IMG/VR virus record: IMGVR_UViG_3300028603_000003
Length of the DNA: 64,000 nt
From: a virus
Taxonomy: Duplodnaviria > Heunggongvirae > Uroviricota > Caudoviricetes
Reading direction: 5' to 3' (one strand)
Position 1 is the stretch's first letter. Each line of letters begins with the position of its first letter. Below, in pieces: positions 20,280 through 27,676 of this stretch. A model generated the notes under the pieces. It was not told where the DNA came from and ran no database searches. It was given only the letters and a program-made list of their open reading frames with translations. The translations under genes and the position numbers were made by a program.

Positions 20280-21314
20280 TTGGCGGTAGACTTTACTATG
20301 TTGTTCATTGATAAAAAATATGTAAGCATAATCTCTTCCAAGTTCGACGGATTCAAATGGAAGTCTTCGGATGTTGCCAACTGTCGATGCCCTCTTTGTG
20401 GAGACTCCAAAACCAAGAAGACCAAGAAAAGAGGCTATTGGTATCCTCGTGGAGACTCCTACTGGTACTCGTGCCACAATTGCGGACAGAACCAATCCCT
20501 CAGAAACTTTCTGAAGAGTTTTGACTATCCAACTTACGAAGATTATAATTTAGAGACATATAAAGAATCTTCTGGCTTCTATACTCAAAAGCCCCAAGAG
20601 CAGAAAGCGCACACCCCCCCAGAACTAATGGCATCTGCCCTAGCCCAATCAAAAATTTCCCCATACATAAACACCAAAAAGCTCTTGTCTCTCAGGGAAG
20701 ATCACCCCGCATATCAGTACGTGATCAGTAGAAAGATTCCGATTGACAGGCTAGCAGAATTCTACTATACACCAAAGTTTTTTAAGTGGGCTTCGGAGTG
20801 GAAAGAACAGTTCGAAGATATAAAACACGACCACCCAAGATTGATCATTCCCTTTAGGGACAAGTTAGGCAACGACATTGGGTTTTCTGCCAGATGTTTC
20901 GGCGATGAGCCAAACAAATACATAATGATCAAATTTGATTCTGACAGCACGGACAGGTTACAATATGGACTAGATCGAGTAAATCTATCAGATACGGTTT
21001 ATTGTGTTGAAGGTCCAGTAGATTCGATGTTTGTCAATAACTGTGTAGCCTCTTGTAATGCTGCACTTCATACAGTTGACATCGCAGACATCTTGATATA
21101 TGACAATCAACCAAGAAACAAAGAAGTGGTTGACATGATTAGTCGAGGCATTGATTCTGGCAAGGGTGTAGTCATATGGCCTGAGAGCTTCAAATACAAA
21201 GACATTAATCAAGCAGTTGTGTCTGGCGAAGAAGACATTCAAACACTGATAGACGAAAACACTTACTATGGTCTTGAGCTTAAGCTTAAATTTACACAAT
21301 GGAAAAAACTTTAG
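20280..21314 (+). CDS. 61: DNA primase gp61
   Basis: N-terminal zinc ribbon CRCPLCGDSKTKKTKKRGYWY...CHNC, very similar to T4 gp61 (CPVCGDSKTDQNKARGWYY). Toprim-like VYCVEGPVDSMF. TTG at 20280 or ATG at 20298. Confidence 0.85.
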   Translation: MAVDFTMLFIDKKYVSIISSKFDGFKWKSSDVANCRCPLCGDSKTKKTKKRGYWYPRGDSYWYSCHNCGQNQSLRNFLKSFDYPTYEDYNLETYKESSGFYTQKPQEQKAHTPPELMASALAQSKISPYINTKKLLSLREDHPAYQYVISRKIPIDRLAEFYYTPKFFKWASEWKEQFEDIKHDHPRLIIPFRDKLGNDIGFSARCFGDEPNKYIMIKFDSDSTDRLQYGLDRVNLSDTVYCVEGPVDSMFVNNCVASCNAALHTVDIADILIYDNQPRNKEVVDMISRGIDSGKGVVIWPESFKYKDINQAVVSGEEDIQTLIDENTYYGLELKLKFTQWKKL

Positions 21315-21322
21315 GAGAAAGA

Positions 21323-22237
21323 ATGGCAAACCCAACAGCAAAAATTCTAGCAGATAGCATTTCACCACAAGGAAAGCGAATCACGACTTTTGAAATTACA
21401 CTTCCCAAATGCCTTCTAGCAGAATACAACACACACGCACTAGTTGCTCGAAACTTTTCAAGCGCCCGAGCAATCCCCGTTAACAGAAACGTAGAGATTG
21501 AATCTTTCTATCCTATCAGGTGGGGAAAGAATCAGGCGGGGATGGTTGCAAAGGATGAGGACATCGATGATGTAACTGCCGCTCAAGACATTTGGTCGCA
21601 GGCAATCGAGTCTGCAAAGCAATACTCCAAGGCGCTGAATGAACTCCAACTACACAAGCAGTGGAGCAATCGCCTAAACGACTGGCACACCATGGCGAAG
21701 GGTGTGACAACAGCAACCGAATTCGAAAACTTCTTCTGGCTTCGAGATGCAGAGGACGCACAACCCGAAATTGCTGAGTTGGCTCGTCAGATGAAGAATC
21801 TCCGGGAAGAAAATGAACCTACGCTGTTGTATCCCGGTGAATGGCATCTTCCATACATCACAACATATCGAGGCGAGTATTGTGAATGGTCAGACTACAT
21901 TGACCCTCTAAGTGGAGAGTCGCTGTCACTAGAAACCGCCAGAACCGTTTCTATGGCCCGTTGTGCAGCAGTATCATACCGAACAGAAGATATCGGCTTG
22001 GAGAAGGCACAGGACATTTATACAAAGCTTTTCAGCGGTCAGAAGGTACACGCTTCACCCGCAATGCACCAAGCAACTCCAATGGAAGACTTGCCAACAA
22101 TCACAAAGAAGCTAGAGTATATGTTCGAAACCGAAGGGGTAACTCACCTAGATCGTTTTGGGGCACTGTGGTCTGGCAATCTTCAAGGCTGGATTCAATA
22201 TCGACAACTTCTACCTAATCACTACAAGCGAGGCTAA
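21323..22237 (+). CDS. hypothetical protein with weak ThyX-like motif remnant
   Basis: Strong RBS aggagaaaga before ATG 21323. TFEITLPK...YNTHALVARNFSSARA aligns loosely to the ThyX RHR-x7-S-x-RY region (Ser and second Arg kept, both RHR arginines replaced). Speculative. Confidence 0.3.
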   Translation: MANPTAKILADSISPQGKRITTFEITLPKCLLAEYNTHALVARNFSSARAIPVNRNVEIESFYPIRWGKNQAGMVAKDEDIDDVTAAQDIWSQAIESAKQYSKALNELQLHKQWSNRLNDWHTMAKGVTTATEFENFFWLRDAEDAQPEIAELARQMKNLREENEPTLLYPGEWHLPYITTYRGEYCEWSDYIDPLSGESLSLETARTVSMARCAAVSYRTEDIGLEKAQDIYTKLFSGQKVHASPAMHQATPMEDLPTITKKLEYMFETEGVTHLDRFGALWSGNLQGWIQYRQLLPNHYKRG

Positions 22238-22238
22238 C

Positions 22239-22499
22239 ATGAAAGAAGATTTGCAAAGCCCTCTAGACCTTAGATACACTGTGTTCAAGCATTCTGATCT
22301 TGAGTGTCTGACTGATACTGAATATCAAATTTTGCTGACTCTTTATGACAAAGTCAACGAGCACCGAGCGGCAAACAACAAGCGCCCCTTATTTGGGGTG
22401 TTTGTTAATCGGGATTGGGGTTGCTTTGACGATGTTGCAAAAATTTTAACCAAATACATTAATGAACAAGAAGGAAGTAAGAATGACAAAGCCAGTTAA
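22239..22499 (+). CDS. hypothetical protein
   Basis: ORF only. Confidence 0.35.
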   Translation: MKEDLQSPLDLRYTVFKHSDLECLTDTEYQILLTLYDKVNEHRAANNKRPLFGVFVNRDWGCFDDVAKILTKYINEQEGSKNDKAS

Positions 22500-22884
22500 C
22501 TCTCTAAACTGTGGTAGCTCTGTATGGGACTTCATGCAGGCATGTGCCCAACAAACAAACGATGTTCCTACCGAGTGTTGGGAGTCTCAAGGATTCTCAA
22601 TCTACAAGAAGCTGGTAGAAGAAGAGTTTGACGAAGTTATGGAAGCGATTGAGAACAGGGACATTAAGAATCTAACTCAAGAGCTAGTTGACCTGATCGT
22701 GGTTTCTCTTGGTCTAGCACACACAATGGGGCTTCCCATGCAAGCAATGTGGGATGAAGTTGCGCGAGCTAATGCATCGAAGGTCGATCCGGTAACTGGA
22801 AAGGTTACTCGTCGAGAAGACGGCAAGATTCTTAAAGGTCCATCATTTGTTCCTGTTAGTTTGGATAGAGTCTTCGAAAAGTAA
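22483..22884 (+). CDS. MazG-like nucleoside triphosphate pyrophosphohydrolase
   Basis: EEFDEVMEAIEN and ELVDLIVVSLGLAH motifs (EExxE/D metal-binding helix pair) typical of MazG/HisE-like all-alpha NTP-PPases. T4 gp56 dCTPase belongs to this fold. Confidence 0.65.
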   Translation: MTKPVNSLNCGSSVWDFMQACAQQTNDVPTECWESQGFSIYKKLVEEEFDEVMEAIENRDIKNLTQELVDLIVVSLGLAHTMGLPMQAMWDEVARANASKVDPVTGKVTRREDGKILKGPSFVPVSLDRVFEK

Positions 22885-22905
22885 AAATAAAACGACTAAA
22901 TACTA

Positions 22906-22936
22906 ATCCCGACTTGTAGCTTGGTCGGGATTTTCA
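22906..22936 (+). terminator. rho-independent terminator
   Basis: atcccgac..gtcgggat hairpin followed by tttt. Confidence 0.5.
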
Positions 22937-22958
22937 TTAATAACATTCGAGGAAAGAA

Positions 22959-25900
22959 ATGAGCGTTATCCCATTGCAGGAAACCTCCCAAGAAATTTGG
23001 GAGAAAAAGTATAGGCTATTAGATGATCATCGTAACCCAGTTGACAAGGACATTTCAGACACATACGACCGAGTAGCTTCTGCGCTGGCAAAGGTAGAAT
23101 CAGACTACGAATATTGGAAAGAACAATTCAAATACGCTTTAGAGAATGGGGCAACTCCTGCTGGCCGCATTCTGTCTAACGCAGGAGCAGAACAGTACAA
23201 GCCCGCAACCAGCTTGATTAACTGTTTGGCAGGTGACACTCCAGTTGTTACTCGCAGCGGCATCTTACCAATCAGAGAACTTGTCGGTAAGGATGTGGAG
23301 ATTCTTAATGGTAACGGACAATGGACAGTTGCACCATTCAAAAGCTTTGGAGAGCAAGAAACATTCAAAGTAACTCTTCGTTGGGGAGACAATAAGCTAA
23401 CAAAGACTGAAATTTTTGCAACAAAGGACCATCGTTGGTTTCTAAGTGATGGTCGAGTTGTGACCACTGAATTTTGGATGACTGGCGGACTTTCGAACAA
23501 GACAAGAACAATCCCACATTTATTCATCCCCAAAGAGAAATTTGTACAAAGCGAATGGGATTCCGGTTTTATCCATGGCCTTGTCTATGGGGACGGTTCT
23601 GACATTTCTACTCCTAACACATATTACTTGAACCTTTGTGGTGAAAAGCAAGAACTAGTTGGCAAAGTAAAAAGCATTCTTGGACTGTCGCCTTCCGTCT
23701 ATGAGGAATCACAAACCTCTCGGTTCACTCTTAAGAGCGAGGCTAATCTAAAAGAAGTCCCTTATGACTACACTTACAGTTATTTGCGGGGCTTCATCGC
23801 GGGGGTTTTAGCCACAGACGGCAGCGTAACCAAAAACAGCAAAGGCTGTTATATTGCGCTTTATGGAAAGAAAGAGCTAGTAGACTTTATTCTTGGCAAT
23901 TCGATATATTGTGGTATCATGCCAACTCATTCTCGCAAGAGCGCGGGGCGAGGTCAGATCACAAATTTTGGTATTCGAAAACAAGACCTTTGGATGGTAG
24001 CACTGCACCCAACTACAATTGAAGAGTCAGACATTATTAGAACAGCACACTCTGCCAATTTCAAGAAGACTGTTAACGGTGAAGCTAAAGTTAACAAGTG
24101 GACAGTGGAAAGCGTGTCGCTTGATCCTGTAGTGCAAGAAGTTTTTTGTTGCCACGAATACGAAACCACAGCATTCGCAATTGCTAATGGTATGAAGACC
24201 GGACAGTGCACGGTATCCGAAATCATCGAAGATTCGATGTATGGAATTCTGCATTCTACGCTTCAATCTGGCCTCACATTGAAGGCGGGCTGCGGCATTG
24301 GATACGAGTTTTCAACCCTACGCCCAAAAGATGCATTCGTTCGCGGTGCGGGGGCAACCACTTCTGGCCCCCTGCCTTTTATGGATATCTTCGACAAGAC
24401 TTGCTTTACAGTAAGCAGTGCGGGCGGACGTAGGGGTGCGCAAATGGCGACGTTTGCCGTGTGGCACCCCGACGTAGAAGATTTCATCAAGGCTAAACGG
24501 GAAGATGGAAGACTTCGACAGTTTAACATGTCTCTACTAATTGATGACGAGTTCATGGAAGCAGTCAAGAACAAGTCAGAGTATAAGCTAGTATTTCCAG
24601 TAAAGAAGACAGAAATTGATTCGGGTCTGGTTACTGGCGAGCTAGTTAAGAAGAAGCTTTTCTGGCAAAAAGAGTATTGTCTATCTCAAGACTATATCAT
24701 CGATGATAACGATCTTATCACATGCATGGTGTACAAGACTGTAAATGCGGGCGACCTATGGTCAACCATCATGCAGTCAACATATGACTTCTCTGAACCC
24801 GGATTCCTTTTGATTGACCGAATCAACGAGCTAAACAATAACTGGTTCTGCGAAAAGATTCGAGCTACAAATCCGTGTGGTTAAATTTACCAGCCTCACG
24901 TTAAAAACTCTGTGAATTCAGGGGAACGCTAGAACAGCCAATCCTGAGCCAAGCCAAGTCGGCGACGATTTGGAAGGTGCAACGACTAGGACATACGAAC
25001 TCTACGAGTTTATGAAGTCTATAGGATCAAGTGATCCGAAGCGCAGAGAACAACATAAATTATGTTGTTATGATATAGTCTGGACTGCATAGGAATATGC
25101 AGAAGTGTAAGATGCGATTCTGCCATAGGAGAATTATGAGAGAATGCGCATCATGTAAAGAGAGCATTCCCATAGAGGAATTTACTTGGAGAGGCGGAGG
25201 TAGAAAGGGTTTGCAATCTACTTGTAAATTCTGCACCTTAGAAAGATTAAGAGAACATCGAGCGTACACTAGACGACTCGTTGGAAGATGGAAACTTAGG
25301 AAAGGGTGTAGTAGGTGTGGGTTCAAGGCTGAGCATTCTTGCCAGCTAGACTTAGACCATATAGACCCAACAACAAAAAATAGTAAGTGTAACGGAAGAG
25401 CGTTTGAACCTTCTTGGAGTGTAAAGAGGATCAAAGAAGAGTTATCTAAATGTGTCGTTCTATGTAAGAACTGCCATGCTCTCAAAACTTACGAAAACAA
25501 AGACTATCTATAAACTTAATCGCATCTTACACTGGCCGGGATTAACGAACCCGGTTGAACATAACGGAACAACCTTTGCCCCCAGAGGGGTCGTGTCTAC
25601 TTGGAAGCGTAAACGTCGCATTTTTCGTTGACAATCCATTTACCCCACAAGCTTCTTTTAATTGGGAAAAGTATAAGAAGGTCGTCAGAATTTTCACCCG
25701 GATGCTTGACAACGTTGTCGAGTTTAATGGGCTTCCACTTGAAGGGCAGCGAAAAGAAATTGAAAGAAAGCGCAGGCACGGCATGGGAATTCTCGGAGTC
25801 GGCAGCGCATTCTCTCTGTTGGGCATTCGTTATGGGAGCAAAGAGTCAGTAGAGCTTGTATCAGAGTGGATGAAGGTCATGGCTGTGACTGGATTTGAAG

Positions 25901-26658
25901 TTGGTATCGAGTTGGCTAAAGAAAAGGGTTGCGCACCAATCTTTAACGAATTCACAGAGATTGACGGAAACTTAGAGAGCAACAAAACTTTGTGGGCCAA
26001 CGGCAAGTACATGCAAAGAATTTGGGAAGTTGCTCCACATCTGAAGGCACAGGCAATTCAACATGGTTGCAGATTTACGCACCACACTTCAATTGCTCCA
26101 ACAGGGACTATTTCGCTGTCAGTCAACAACAATGTGAGCAATGGAATTGAACCTTCTTTCTCTTTGAAATACACCAGAAACGTTATCGAGCAAGGCAAGA
26201 AAACAAAGAGAGCGGTTGATGTTTATAGCTACGAGCTTTTGTTGTATAAACACATTACAGGCTCTGACGAAGCGCCAGATTACTTCAGCACCTCGGACAC
26301 TGTAAAAACCTACGAGCACGTTGACATTCAGGCGGCAGCACAATATTGGTGTGATAGCAGCATTAGCAAGACAATCAACGTGCCCTCCGACATTCCGTTC
26401 GAAGAGTTCAAAGAAGTTTACATTTATGCTTATGAAAAAGGACTGAAGGGTGCCACCACATTCAGGTTTAACCCTGCCGCATTCCAAGGCGTACTTGTAA
26501 AGGAAGATGACTTGGCTAAGACCGAGTATGTTTTCCGGCTGGAAGATGGCTCAGAAGTTGTGGCTAAGGGTAACGATTCAATCGTTTATGACGGAGAGGA
26601 ACACACCGCAGCGAACTTGTTCGATGCGATTAAGGAAGGCTACTATGGCAAGTTTTAA
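22959..26658 (+). CDS. ribonucleotide reductase catalytic subunit, interrupted by an intein (23223..24206) and a group I intron (24882..25566). Exon 1 is 22959..24881 and exon 2 is 25567..26658
   Basis: RNR motifs ILSNAG...SLIN-C, GCGIGYEFSTLRPK, SGPLPFMDIFD, GGRRGAQMATFAVWHPDVEDFI. NPCG at the exon 1 end and EQPLPPEGSCLLGSVNV at the exon 2 start together rebuild the canonical NPCGE...CNLGS[LI]N motif. Class (I versus II) is not resolved. No ATP cone. Confidence 0.85.
23223..24206 (+). mobile_element. intein with LAGLIDADG homing-endonuclease domain inside the RNR gene
   Basis: Starts CLAGDTPVV (block A) and has a TKDH block B. Two LAGLIDADG motifs: GFIHGLVYGDGSD and YLRGFIAGVLATDGSV. Ends ..AFAIANGMKTGQ, followed by +1 Cys. 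Host sequence resumes CTVSEIIEDSM. Confidence 0.75.
24882..25566 (+). mobile_element. group I intron in the RNR gene, carrying an HNH endonuclease ORF
   Basis: Exon 1 ends in U directly after NPCG, followed by an in-frame TAA. Exon 2 starts with GAA (Glu) right after a G at 25566. No RBS or ATG for exon 2. The intron sits in the most conserved codon string. Confidence 0.7.
25097..25513 (+). CDS. intron-encoded HNH homing endonuclease
   Basis: Multiple CxxC pairs plus an HNH core (DLDHIDP...N...CKNCH). Confidence 0.7.
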   Translation: MQKCKMRFCHRRIMRECASCKESIPIEEFTWRGGGRKGLQSTCKFCTLERLREHRAYTRRLVGRWKLRKGCSRCGFKAEHSCQLDLDHIDPTTKNSKCNGRAFEPSWSVKRIKEELSKCVVLCKNCHALKTYENKDYL

Positions 26659-27250
26659 TATTACCAAAAAGATCGTTTCAGTTCATCTAGGAGAGGGCGA
26701 AAAGCCCTCTTCAAAAGACTTTGATGGAGTCATCGTAACCGATGTCAAGCTACCGACAGACGCTCAAGCAAGACTTAAAACATTGAAGGCAGAGGGCAAA
26801 AAGTGGTATCTTACGGTTGCCTATCATCCAGATTCAGAATTGCCCTTTGCGATGTTCTGCCACACCAACCACAAAGAGAAGGGAGCACAAACTTCTGACG
26901 CTGTCACAAGGCTAGTAGCACTGGCTAGGTCAAGCGGAATTTTGGAAGAACACGTCAAGGGTCTTGAAGATAAGATTGACCAAGACAACAACGTGTCGAA
27001 GCTTACCCGAGTAATCAGCATGCTTCTTCGCCACCGAGTCAAGATCGCAAACATTGTAAGAGAGCTTGACAAAATGGAAGACATCTATGTTGGGTCATTT
27101 TTGTTTCAAATCAAGAAGTTTCTATCACAATACATCAAGGACGGCGAAGCTGTAGAGGGCGCGAAGTGTTCTGAATGTGGTAGCACAAACGTTGTATTCT
27201 CTGAGGGATGCAATCGATGTAATGATTGCGGCAGTTCGAAATGCGGGTGA
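26646..27250 (+). CDS. hypothetical protein with C-terminal C4 zinc ribbon
   Basis: RBS aggaagg before ATG 26646. C-terminus CSECGSTNVVFSEGCNRCNDCGSSKCG. The same frame is open further upstream (track ORF begins 26507), overlapping the RNR 3' end. Confidence 0.45.
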
Positions 27251-27253
27251 TAC

Positions 27254-27676
27254 ATGCCCACACTTCGTGAACTAGACCAATGCTACATGGCAGTCGCCCT
27301 CGGCCACGCCAAGCTAAGCAAAGCCAAACGGAAACAGGTTGGGGCTTGCTTGGTGACTTCGAGTGGCATTATAATCCCCGGCTATAACGGAACTCCGAGC
27401 GGGAGTTCGAACGAGTGCGAAGAGTTGATCGACGGGGTTCTTGTAACAAAGCCTGAAGTGATACACGCGGAACTCAACTGTATCTTGAAAGCTGCGCGAG
27501 AAGGGGTTAGTGTTGTTGGCAGTAGGCTATATGTTACACTGTCACCATGTAAGCCATGCGCGGCAATGATCGTGCAGGCAGGAGTCAAAGAAGTCGCCTA
27601 TCTTCAAACCTACAGGTGCACAGGTGGCCTGTCCCTGCTTGTTGATGCTGGAGTTGAAGTCAGGCAGATTGTTTGA
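27254..27676 (+). CDS. cd: dCMP deaminase
   Basis: Zinc-binding cytidine/dCMP deaminase motifs HAELNCI and SPCKPCAAMI. Confidence 0.85.
   Translation: MPTLRELDQCYMAVALGHAKLSKAKRKQVGACLVTSSGIIIPGYNGTPSGSSNECEELIDGVLVTKPEVIHAELNCILKAAREGVSVVGSRLYVTLSPCKPCAAMIVQAGVKEVAYLQTYRCTGGLSLLVDAGVEVRQIV

Follow-up and report, generated by a model that had tools for sequence, protein, structure and literature searches.

Closest described inteins

Inteins canonically end in a penultimate His and a terminal Asn. Gln and Asp are, nevertheless, able to cyclise in the third step of splicing in place of Asn (PMC4031507), and the class 1 inteins of mycobacteriophages show little conservation of the penultimate His (PMC5050341). 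The element analysed here lies in a 64,000-nucleotide (nt) stretch of DNA from a Caudoviricetes virus (IMG/VR record IMGVR_UViG_3300028603_000003; this whole stretch is referred to as the window), inside a gene for a ribonucleotide reductase, and ends in Gly-Gln. Its boundaries, fold, family membership, conservation and purifying selection establish it as an intein. Most probably it is a functional and mobile one of 328 amino acids (aa), inserted directly before the active-site cysteine of the reductase N-C-x-V motif, and would splice by the class 1 pathway.

Regarding the terminal Gln, the reductase intein of Chilo iridescent virus (CIV) can be likened to the window intein from its published description; its host is a eukaryotic virus, and its native Gln supports better splicing than Asn does (PMC4031507, citing Amitai et al. 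2004). The PolII inteins of Pyrococcus abyssi, Pyrococcus horikoshii and Methanoculleus marisnigri also combine a C-terminal Gln, which forms an aminoglutarimide, with a +1 Cys (PMC8175363, PMC4031507). Unlike the window intein, however, they are archaeal mini-inteins of DNA polymerase II and keep both the penultimate and the block F His; with Gln their splicing is slow, and it depends on redox state and temperature. As for the penultimate Gly, the class 1 gp51 (RDF) intein of mycobacteriophage Bethlehem shares with the window intein a phage host, a LAGLIDADG nuclease and the native Gly itself, and differs in its terminal Asn and its host protein. It splices completely with the native Gly, whereas the change from Gly to His slows splicing and lets precursor build up (PMC5050341). 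The AceL NrdHF intein, which has a His at neither F:13 nor G:6, splices within minutes (PMC7891396). The literature on Gln and Gly endings and splicing speed points both ways, but there are published cases of inteins with a terminal Gln, and of others with a penultimate Gly, that splice well.

According to sequence, the best matches to the family of the window intein are the class 1 inteins gp41-1 and DnaE (Npu and Ssp), of which gp41-1 natively has Thr at G:5. In contrast to the family, these are mini or split inteins with no nuclease, with Asp at F:4 and a terminal Asn. Class 3 inteins (MP-Be DnaB, Msm and Mch DnaB-1, Dra Snf2, AceL NrdHF), for which a phage origin has been proposed, carry the same Trp/Cys/Thr triplet as the family (PMC2807308, PMC7891396), and this triplet defines the class (PMC2807308). 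Unlike family members, however, they have no Cys or Ser at position 1, their definition being the absence of an N-terminal Cys plus a Cys at C2:4 (PMC7891396). Their +1 residue is almost always Ser or Thr, with one known exception, Bvi IcmO (PMC5222942).

Position and boundaries of the intein

The intein and its flanks are located in the window as follows (a slash in sequences below marks a junction).

22959..23222, + strand: N-extein, the first 88 residues of a class II-type ribonucleotide reductase (NrdJ-like), ending ...KPATSLIN (all-alpha domain, Pfam Ribonuc_red_lgN, residues 7-78)
23223..24206, + strand: intein, 328 aa from Cys1 (TGT) to Gln328 (CAG), a HINT splicing domain with a nested LAGLIDADG homing endonuclease, delimited by empty-site alleles
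24207..24209, + strand: +1 Cys (TGC), the first C-extein residue and the conserved cysteine of the reductase N-C-x-V motif, placed by intein-free relatives
24207..24881, + strand: C-extein, exon 1 part (CTVSEII...ATNPCG), reductase barrel domain (Pfam Ribonuc_red_lgC, residues 417-641, E = 3e-52)

In the frame 1 translation of the exon-1 reductase open reading frame (ORF; 22959..24884, +, 641 aa) the intein occupies residues 89 to 416, CLAGDTPV...NGMKTGQ, and is followed by Cys. Positions 24150..24215 (frame 1, +) read CHEYETTAFAIANGMKTGQ/CTV (full translation CHEYETTAFAIANGMKTGQCTV), with junction codons GGA for Gly327 (24201-24203), CAG for Gln328 (24204-24206) and TGC for the +1 Cys (24207-24209).

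When the conceptually spliced exon-1 product was searched against viral contigs at the protein level, eight related contigs emerged that have no intein (58-77% aa identity) and match the spliced product uninterrupted. Seven of them (L008-L014) read ...(S or A)(L or T)IN/CTVS... at the junction and the eighth (L015) reads ...SLVN/CTTG..., the empty-site sequence being ACCAGCTTGATTAAC/TGCACGGTATCC. N-extein and C-extein are thus contiguous in intein-free relatives, and the spliced extein also aligns in one piece to remoter intein-free phage reductases, which read LFN-CFVMG (Rhodobacter phage RcIroh) and LFN-CYVMG (Synechococcus virus S-ESS1). No surplus residues are left on either side in the empty-site alleles; a boundary at a His-Asn or at Asn322 is therefore impossible, and no His-Asn occurs near the C-terminal junction of the intein. 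The remaining ambiguity is a trivial shift by one Cys residue (IN/C...Q/C versus INC/L...QC/T), in which the alternative intein starts with Leu; it is settled in favour of Cys1 because of the block A homology (CLxGDT).

The first-pass annotation, made from the letters of the window, had reported an intein that ends in Gly-Gln before a +1 Cys. The translation, the empty-site alleles, the TGQ/C ending of four homologues and the profile alignment all confirm this, and the search for an HN boundary that it proposed as a refutation found none. Scanning the window in all six frames with the HINT profile of the family revealed no second intein.

Motifs, fold and conservation

The intein contains the expected blocks in order. 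Residues called invariant below are so in eight sequences, namely the window intein and seven homologous proteins returned by a word-indexed search.

23223..23261, + strand: block A (CLAGDTPVVTRSG), with Cys1 as the expected first nucleophile; C1, L2, G4 and T6 invariant
23409..23450, + strand: block B (EIFATKDHRWFLSD), with Thr67 (B:7), His70 (B:10) and Trp72 (B:12); A66, T67, H70 and W72 invariant
23565..23600, + strand: first LAGLIDADG motif (GFIHGLVYGDGS, GLVYGD124G, Asp124); V121, Y122, G123, D124 and G125 invariant
23781..23825, + strand: second LAGLIDADG motif (YLRGFIAGVLATDGS, GVLATD199G, Asp199); A197, D199 and G200 invariant
24135..24182, + strand: block F (QEVFCCHEYETTAFAI), with Cys309 (F:4), Thr316 (F:13) and Phe318 (F:15); E306, V307, C309 and F318 invariant
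24186..24206, + strand: block G (NGMKTGQ), with Thr326 (G:5), Gly327 (G:6) and Gln328 (G:7); T326 and G327 invariant

Block A aligns to CLSYETEILT of the Npu DnaE intein, and block B, which has the Thr-x-x-His motif as the invariant T67-K-D-H70, aligns to ATKDHKF of the same intein. In block F, position F:4 is Cys309, in contrast to Asp in most inteins, and F:13 is Thr316 instead of His. Block G has Gly327 and Gln328 in place of the canonical penultimate His and terminal Asn. The residues invariant across all eight sequences include C1, T67, H70, W72, E306, V307, C309, F318, T326, G327 and the +1 Cys. As for the nuclease, the Pfam LAGLIDADG_3 match on ORF residues 275-303 scores 19.9 bits, under the 22.5-bit cut-off.

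An AlphaFold2 model of the intein, built on the seven homologues, has a mean predicted local distance difference test score (pLDDT) of 89.7 and a predicted template modelling score (pTM) of 0.88. The best full-length Foldseek matches in PDB are PI-SceI (E = 6e-12), followed by the TliVMA intein and PI-PfuI (to 7e-10), while the HINT part matches mini-inteins of both class 1 and class 3 at about 1e-4, the scores of the two classes being similar. According to the model, the insertion is predicted to be a complete intein with a HINT fold and a pseudo-dimeric LAGLIDADG endonuclease. The Gly-Gln ending does not exclude it from the inteins, both variants being documented as tolerated (PMC4031507, PMC5050341).

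Among the seven homologues, four (98, 76, 74, and 63% identity over the intein) occupy the same site in the same reductase, and all of them end in ...GMKTGQ/C. The other three, with 27-37% identity by BLASTP and 30-38% in the alignment, end in TGN/C and belong to a TSCPD-domain protein (P0005), an archaeal reductase and an unnamed protein.

The closely related contig L003 (Logan SRR18336522) is 94-96% identical to the window at the DNA level in this region and 98% identical in the intein protein. Between the two inteins there are 21 synonymous and 8 non-synonymous differences, which gives a ratio of non-synonymous to synonymous rates (dN/dS) of 0.10, equal for the HINT and nuclease parts. For the extein dN/dS is 0.017, and none of the 26 differences in the flanking extein is non-synonymous. 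The synonymous rate itself is lower in the intein (0.10; 23223..24206) than in the whole extein (0.23; 22959..23222, 24207..24881, and 25567..26655), with Fisher p = 7e-4. The intein is also present in some relatives and absent from others. Low intein dS together with this presence/absence pattern fits a recently homing element, and the low dS suggests that the sharing of this copy by homing is younger than the divergence of the host gene.

The wider family and its endings

Searching 1.84 billion representatives exhaustively with the profile yielded 4009 matches at E <= 1e-3, of which 1021 remain at E <= 1e-30. The tallies below refer to the 150 best-scoring proteins and the first seven, re-aligned to the profile (249 domain hits, 164 full length). 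Most family members come from metagenomes and most sit in ribonucleotide reductases, and many proteins carry 2-6 such inteins; a cluster look-up of ten Gln-ending members gave metagenomic entries only. The family signature consists of Cys1, Thr-x-x-His-x-Trp in block B, Cys at F:4, a C-terminal Thr-Gly-(Asn or Gln) and a +1 Cys. Among the domains that cover the respective position, Cys1 is present in 208 of 208 and the +1 Cys in 187 of 187, and the full triplet of Trp (B:12), Cys (F:4) and Thr (G:5) is found in 143 of the 164 full-length members.

The most frequent last three residues among the 164 are TGN (97), followed by TGQ (17) and THN (10), with a few TKN, SGN, TSN, TAQ and others. Penultimate Gly is therefore the family consensus (about three quarters of members), and terminal Gln is found in 25 members (15%). 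According to insertion site, Gln is present in 13 of 70 inteins at N/C, the site used here, in 8 of 15 at the thiyl-cysteine site NP/C(G or A)E, in 3 of 3 at /CNL and in 1 of 76 elsewhere. The window intein is thus an ordinary member of a known, large family in which the Gly-Gln ending is common. The rarity stated by the first-pass annotation holds for inteins generally, where Gln termini are uncommon and documented for few (PMC4031507), but not within the intein's own family.

Fitch parsimony on a crude neighbour-joining tree gives at least 9 changes between Asn and Gln. The change from Asn (AAY) to Gln (CAR) takes two nucleotide substitutions, via Lys or His codons, and neither Lys nor His is found at G:7 among the 192 family domains that cover this position. 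Gln inteins form persistent clades rather than isolated mutants, since the nearest neighbour of a Gln intein is mostly another Gln intein. Across the family, no consistent compensating position was found among residues co-varying with Gln; the strongest covariation, loss of Phe at F:15 in Gln inteins, is inapplicable to the clade of the window intein, and both common descent and shifts in the alignment confound it. In the same host lineage, the nearest Asn-ending relatives (about 40% identity) read VFCCEEPET(H, Q or N)SF..GLLTGN/C, in comparison with VFCCHEYETTAFAIANGMKTGQ/C in the Gln clade, and His311 (F:6) and Lys325 (G:4) are specific to the latter.

A cultured actinophage provides a further member. 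The intein of Thermobifida phage P318 (MK240575, coding sequence (CDS) AZU97367.1) reads HLFN/CVSGDTPV...TPDHEW...VFCCTEMETHTM...VLTGQ/CWHSG. It shares with the window intein the family, the N/C site, the TGQ/C ending and the VFCC motif, with 32% identity over the full length, and differs from it by the His at F:13 (ETHTM). The anaerobic reductase NrdD of Morganella phage MP1 (KX078569, L007) contains a family member ending in TGN/C. In the deposited records of P318 and MP1 the reductase CDS is the only feature over each intein.

Taken alone, the window intein is an ordinary mobile element in a gene of phage nucleotide metabolism. The family-level result is that this very large group of inteins normally ends in Gly-Asn or Gly-Gln and not in His-Asn. 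Annotation rules that demand His-Asn would miss such inteins, the P318 record with its reductase CDS alone over the intein being an example. Since Asn and Gln have been interchanged several times despite the two-nucleotide path, the family also forms a natural data set for replacements of the penultimate and block F His and for the adaptation of the active site to Gln cyclisation, and it offers protein engineering a supply of inteins that end in Gln or have Cys at F:4.

Intein class and block register

A HINT-only profile (A3) of 27 diverse family members was matched against solved chains. The best match is gp41-1 engineered with F65W and D107C (6riz, E = 1.2e-9), followed by DnaE inteins (E = 2e-9 to 2e-8) and native gp41-1 (E = 4.1e-6), while the Pho PolII intein (5bkh) and the class 3 DnaB intein of M. 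smegmatis (6bs8) have E-values of 0.1 and 0.15, respectively. The alignment sets VyC of the family over VYD of DnaE inteins and iLTGN over ILTHN of gp41-1. The register W72 = B:12, C309 = F:4, T326 = G:5, G327 = G:6 and Q328 = G:7 follows from this profile alignment to DnaE and gp41-1. The comparison with other inteins proposed by the first-pass annotation has thereby been made: blocks F and G match solved inteins, and the Gln falls over the terminal Asn of gp41-1.

With respect to the features of class 3, the intein has the triplet, together with a Cys1 where class 3 has no position-1 nucleophile and a Cys where class 3 has Ser or Thr at +1. Cys is the second commonest residue at F:4 across inteins (PMC4031507), and class 1 inteins with Cys at this position are reportedly polyphyletic (PMC3196547). 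By its sequence the intein is accordingly placed as putatively class 1-type with Cys at F:4, a class 3-like or hybrid pathway being the minority alternative.

Proposed splicing and alternative explanations

In the proposed class 1 pathway, Cys1 would first form a thioester, and the N-extein would then move to the +1 Cys. Gln328 would cyclise to an aminoglutarimide, in place of the succinimide formed by Asn, which would free the intein, and an S-to-N acyl shift would finally restore the peptide bond to give ...SLIN-CTVS.... The penultimate His appears to be dispensable in the family, its role presumably being filled by other residues. His311 (F:6) and Lys325 (G:4) are speculative candidates for such helpers because they are clade-specific to the Gln clade.

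Several points weigh against a functional class 1 intein. Asn at G:7, His at G:6 and His at F:13 are all missing at once (Thr316 occupies F:13), and efficient C-terminal cleavage would depend on helper residues other than these usual three. Gln makes for slow splicing in the PolII inteins of Pyrococcus abyssi and Methanoculleus marisnigri (PMC4031507). Cys at F:4, Trp at B:12 and Thr at G:5 may leave room for a class 3-type or mixed pathway. Finally, the family tallies describe the top of the ranking only, and 4 of the 7 sequences in the search profile themselves end in Gln.

Among the alternatives, slow or conditional splicing, also raised by the first-pass annotation, is unlikely. Here the Gly-Gln ending and four active-site cysteines (Cys1, Cys309, Cys310, and the +1 Cys) would make splicing respond to redox state or temperature, and the intein would act as a post-translational switch of the reductase. 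Gln slows step 3 in the two PolII inteins just mentioned (PMC4031507), that of P. abyssi also needs its Cys1-Cys+1 disulfide reduced (PMC4031507, PMC8175363), and a DnaB intein of class 3 whose F:4 residue is Cys has been described as sensing oxidative stress (PMC6195587). In addition, the +1 position is occupied by the conserved cysteine of the reductase motif N-C-x-V. The CIV reductase intein, however, splices better with Gln than with Asn (PMC4031507), and native penultimate Gly is faster than His in a phage intein (PMC5050341). The intact endonuclease, the sporadic distribution and the lower dS than in the host gene fit a selfish mobile element better than a domesticated regulator, and close relatives function without the intein. 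The description of the host enzyme as essential is likewise an assumption, reductases being auxiliary genes in phages.

A class 3-type or hybrid pathway is quite unlikely. In such a pathway Cys309, with Trp72 and Thr326, would attack the N-terminal junction to form a branched intermediate at block F, the chain would then pass to the +1 Cys, and Cys1 would be dispensable or redundant. The triplet is invariant in the eight homologues and present in 143 of the 164 members, the top PDB sequence match is the triplet-engineered gp41-1 rather than the native one (6riz, 1.2e-9 versus 4.1e-6), and three triplet-bearing inteins with Ser1 or Cys1 were noted already in 2009 (PMC2807308). In contrast, Cys1 is kept in all 208 domains, a conservation expected of a nucleophile in use, and +1 is always Cys in the family as opposed to Ser or Thr in class 3 (PMC5222942). 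The profile scores about 1e-9 to class 1 DnaE and gp41-1 compared with 0.15 to Msm DnaB. The Cys at F:4 is itself frequent among inteins (PMC4031507) and arises in class 1 polyphyletically (PMC3196547), and the triplet grafted onto gp41-1 gave no class 3 splicing (PMC7664689).

A more speculative extension, which we consider doubtful, is that reductase inteins combining Cys1, the triplet, Thr-Gly-(Asn or Gln) and Cys+1 form a mechanistically distinct group. The Cys at F:4 might then serve as a second nucleophile, a relay or a redox gate between Cys1 and the +1 active-site cysteine, and glutarimide release in the Gln clade might be tuned by His311 and Lys325, leading to regulated maturation of the reductase.

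A degenerate intein that has lost splicing, with the reductase inactive or rescued by host enzymes, is very improbable. It would account for the missing Asn at G:7 and His at G:6 and F:13; phage reductases are dispensable in principle, and a non-splicing intein relic is on record (PMC3196547). However, the intein has a dN/dS of 0.10 and the extein one of 0.017, and of 26 differences in the flanking extein 0 are non-synonymous. The other catalytic positions are all invariant, TGQ is identical in homologues of 63-98% identity, and Gln-ending inteins persist in several long-lived clades at different sites.

As for a true C-terminal boundary elsewhere, ending in His-Asn or in another Asn, the sole point to place it is Asn322 in AFAIAN, six residues upstream of the junction, and it is next to impossible: the empty-site alleles, which refute it, run SLIN straight into CTVS, the residue after Asn322 is a Gly and hence no nucleophile, and block G aligns to ILTHN of gp41-1 with the Gln over the terminal Asn.

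The reductase gene and its neighbourhood

Apart from the intein, the reductase gene is interrupted by an intron, and the reading frame resumes in a second exon.

24882..25566, + strand: group I intron, 685 nt, splitting the thiyl-radical motif as TNPCG/EQPLPP (Rfam RF00028, 79.2 bits, core 24857..25102)
25097..25513, + strand: intron-encoded HNH homing endonuclease ORF, 138 aa (PHROG 2255, E = 6.5e-28)
25567..26658, + strand: reductase exon 2 (EQPLPPEGSC... to the stop codon; Pfam Ribonuc_red_lgC profile positions 213-522, collinear with L003)

The gene product has both characteristic reductase motifs, namely the N-C-x-V cysteine as LIN-C-TV and the NPCGE thiyl-radical motif as TNPCG/EQPLPP. 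Its closest PDB structure is the B12-dependent NrdJ of Thermotoga maritima (1xje). To judge by these sequence features, the host protein is a class II-type, NrdJ-like ribonucleotide reductase, for which B12 dependence is predicted. The N-C-x-V cysteine, i.e., the +1 Cys of the intein, we take to be Cys134 of T. maritima NrdJ, a member of the redox-active pair.

The TSCPD or Cys-rich C-terminal domain, usual in class II reductases, is found here as a separate 201-aa ORF (26645..27250, +), which overlaps the end of the barrel ORF (stop 26658) by 14 nt; L003 is arranged likewise. The separate ORF would represent either a split NrdJ or else a frameshift site.

The reductase is surrounded by a cluster of nucleotide-metabolism and replication genes (20280..27676, +). 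Three of these were assigned from Pfam marks on the syntenic genes of contigs L003 and L004.

21299..22237, + strand: ThyX-like ORF
22462..22884, + strand: MazG-like ORF
27254..27676, + strand: dCMP deaminase-like ORF

The ORF at 20280..21314 looked primase-like when its sequence was judged by eye alone. No tRNA genes were found within the 64,000-nt window. Megablast of the reductase gene against the phage collection gave no match, and that collection contains no near-identical record for the window.

The group I intron is separate from the intein and follows a 5' exon whose last nucleotide is T, its own last nucleotide being G. It is absent from L003, the contig that is 94-96% identical. The presence of an intein and a group I intron stacked in one reductase gene is a point worth keeping. 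L003, for its part, has an 859-nt intron-like insertion (L003 7480..8338) after ...SSAGGRRG, equivalent to a position between 24437 and 24438 of the window, which has no insertion there; it contains a LAGLIDADG_2 ORF (L003 7662..8285). The reductase gene thus appears from the sequences to be a mosaic of the intein and two alternative intron-like insertions. The proteins P0001, P0002 and P0004 likewise end at GGRRG, and P0003 continues past GGRRG into other sequence; an insertion of the L003 type may be present in P0001-P0004 as well.

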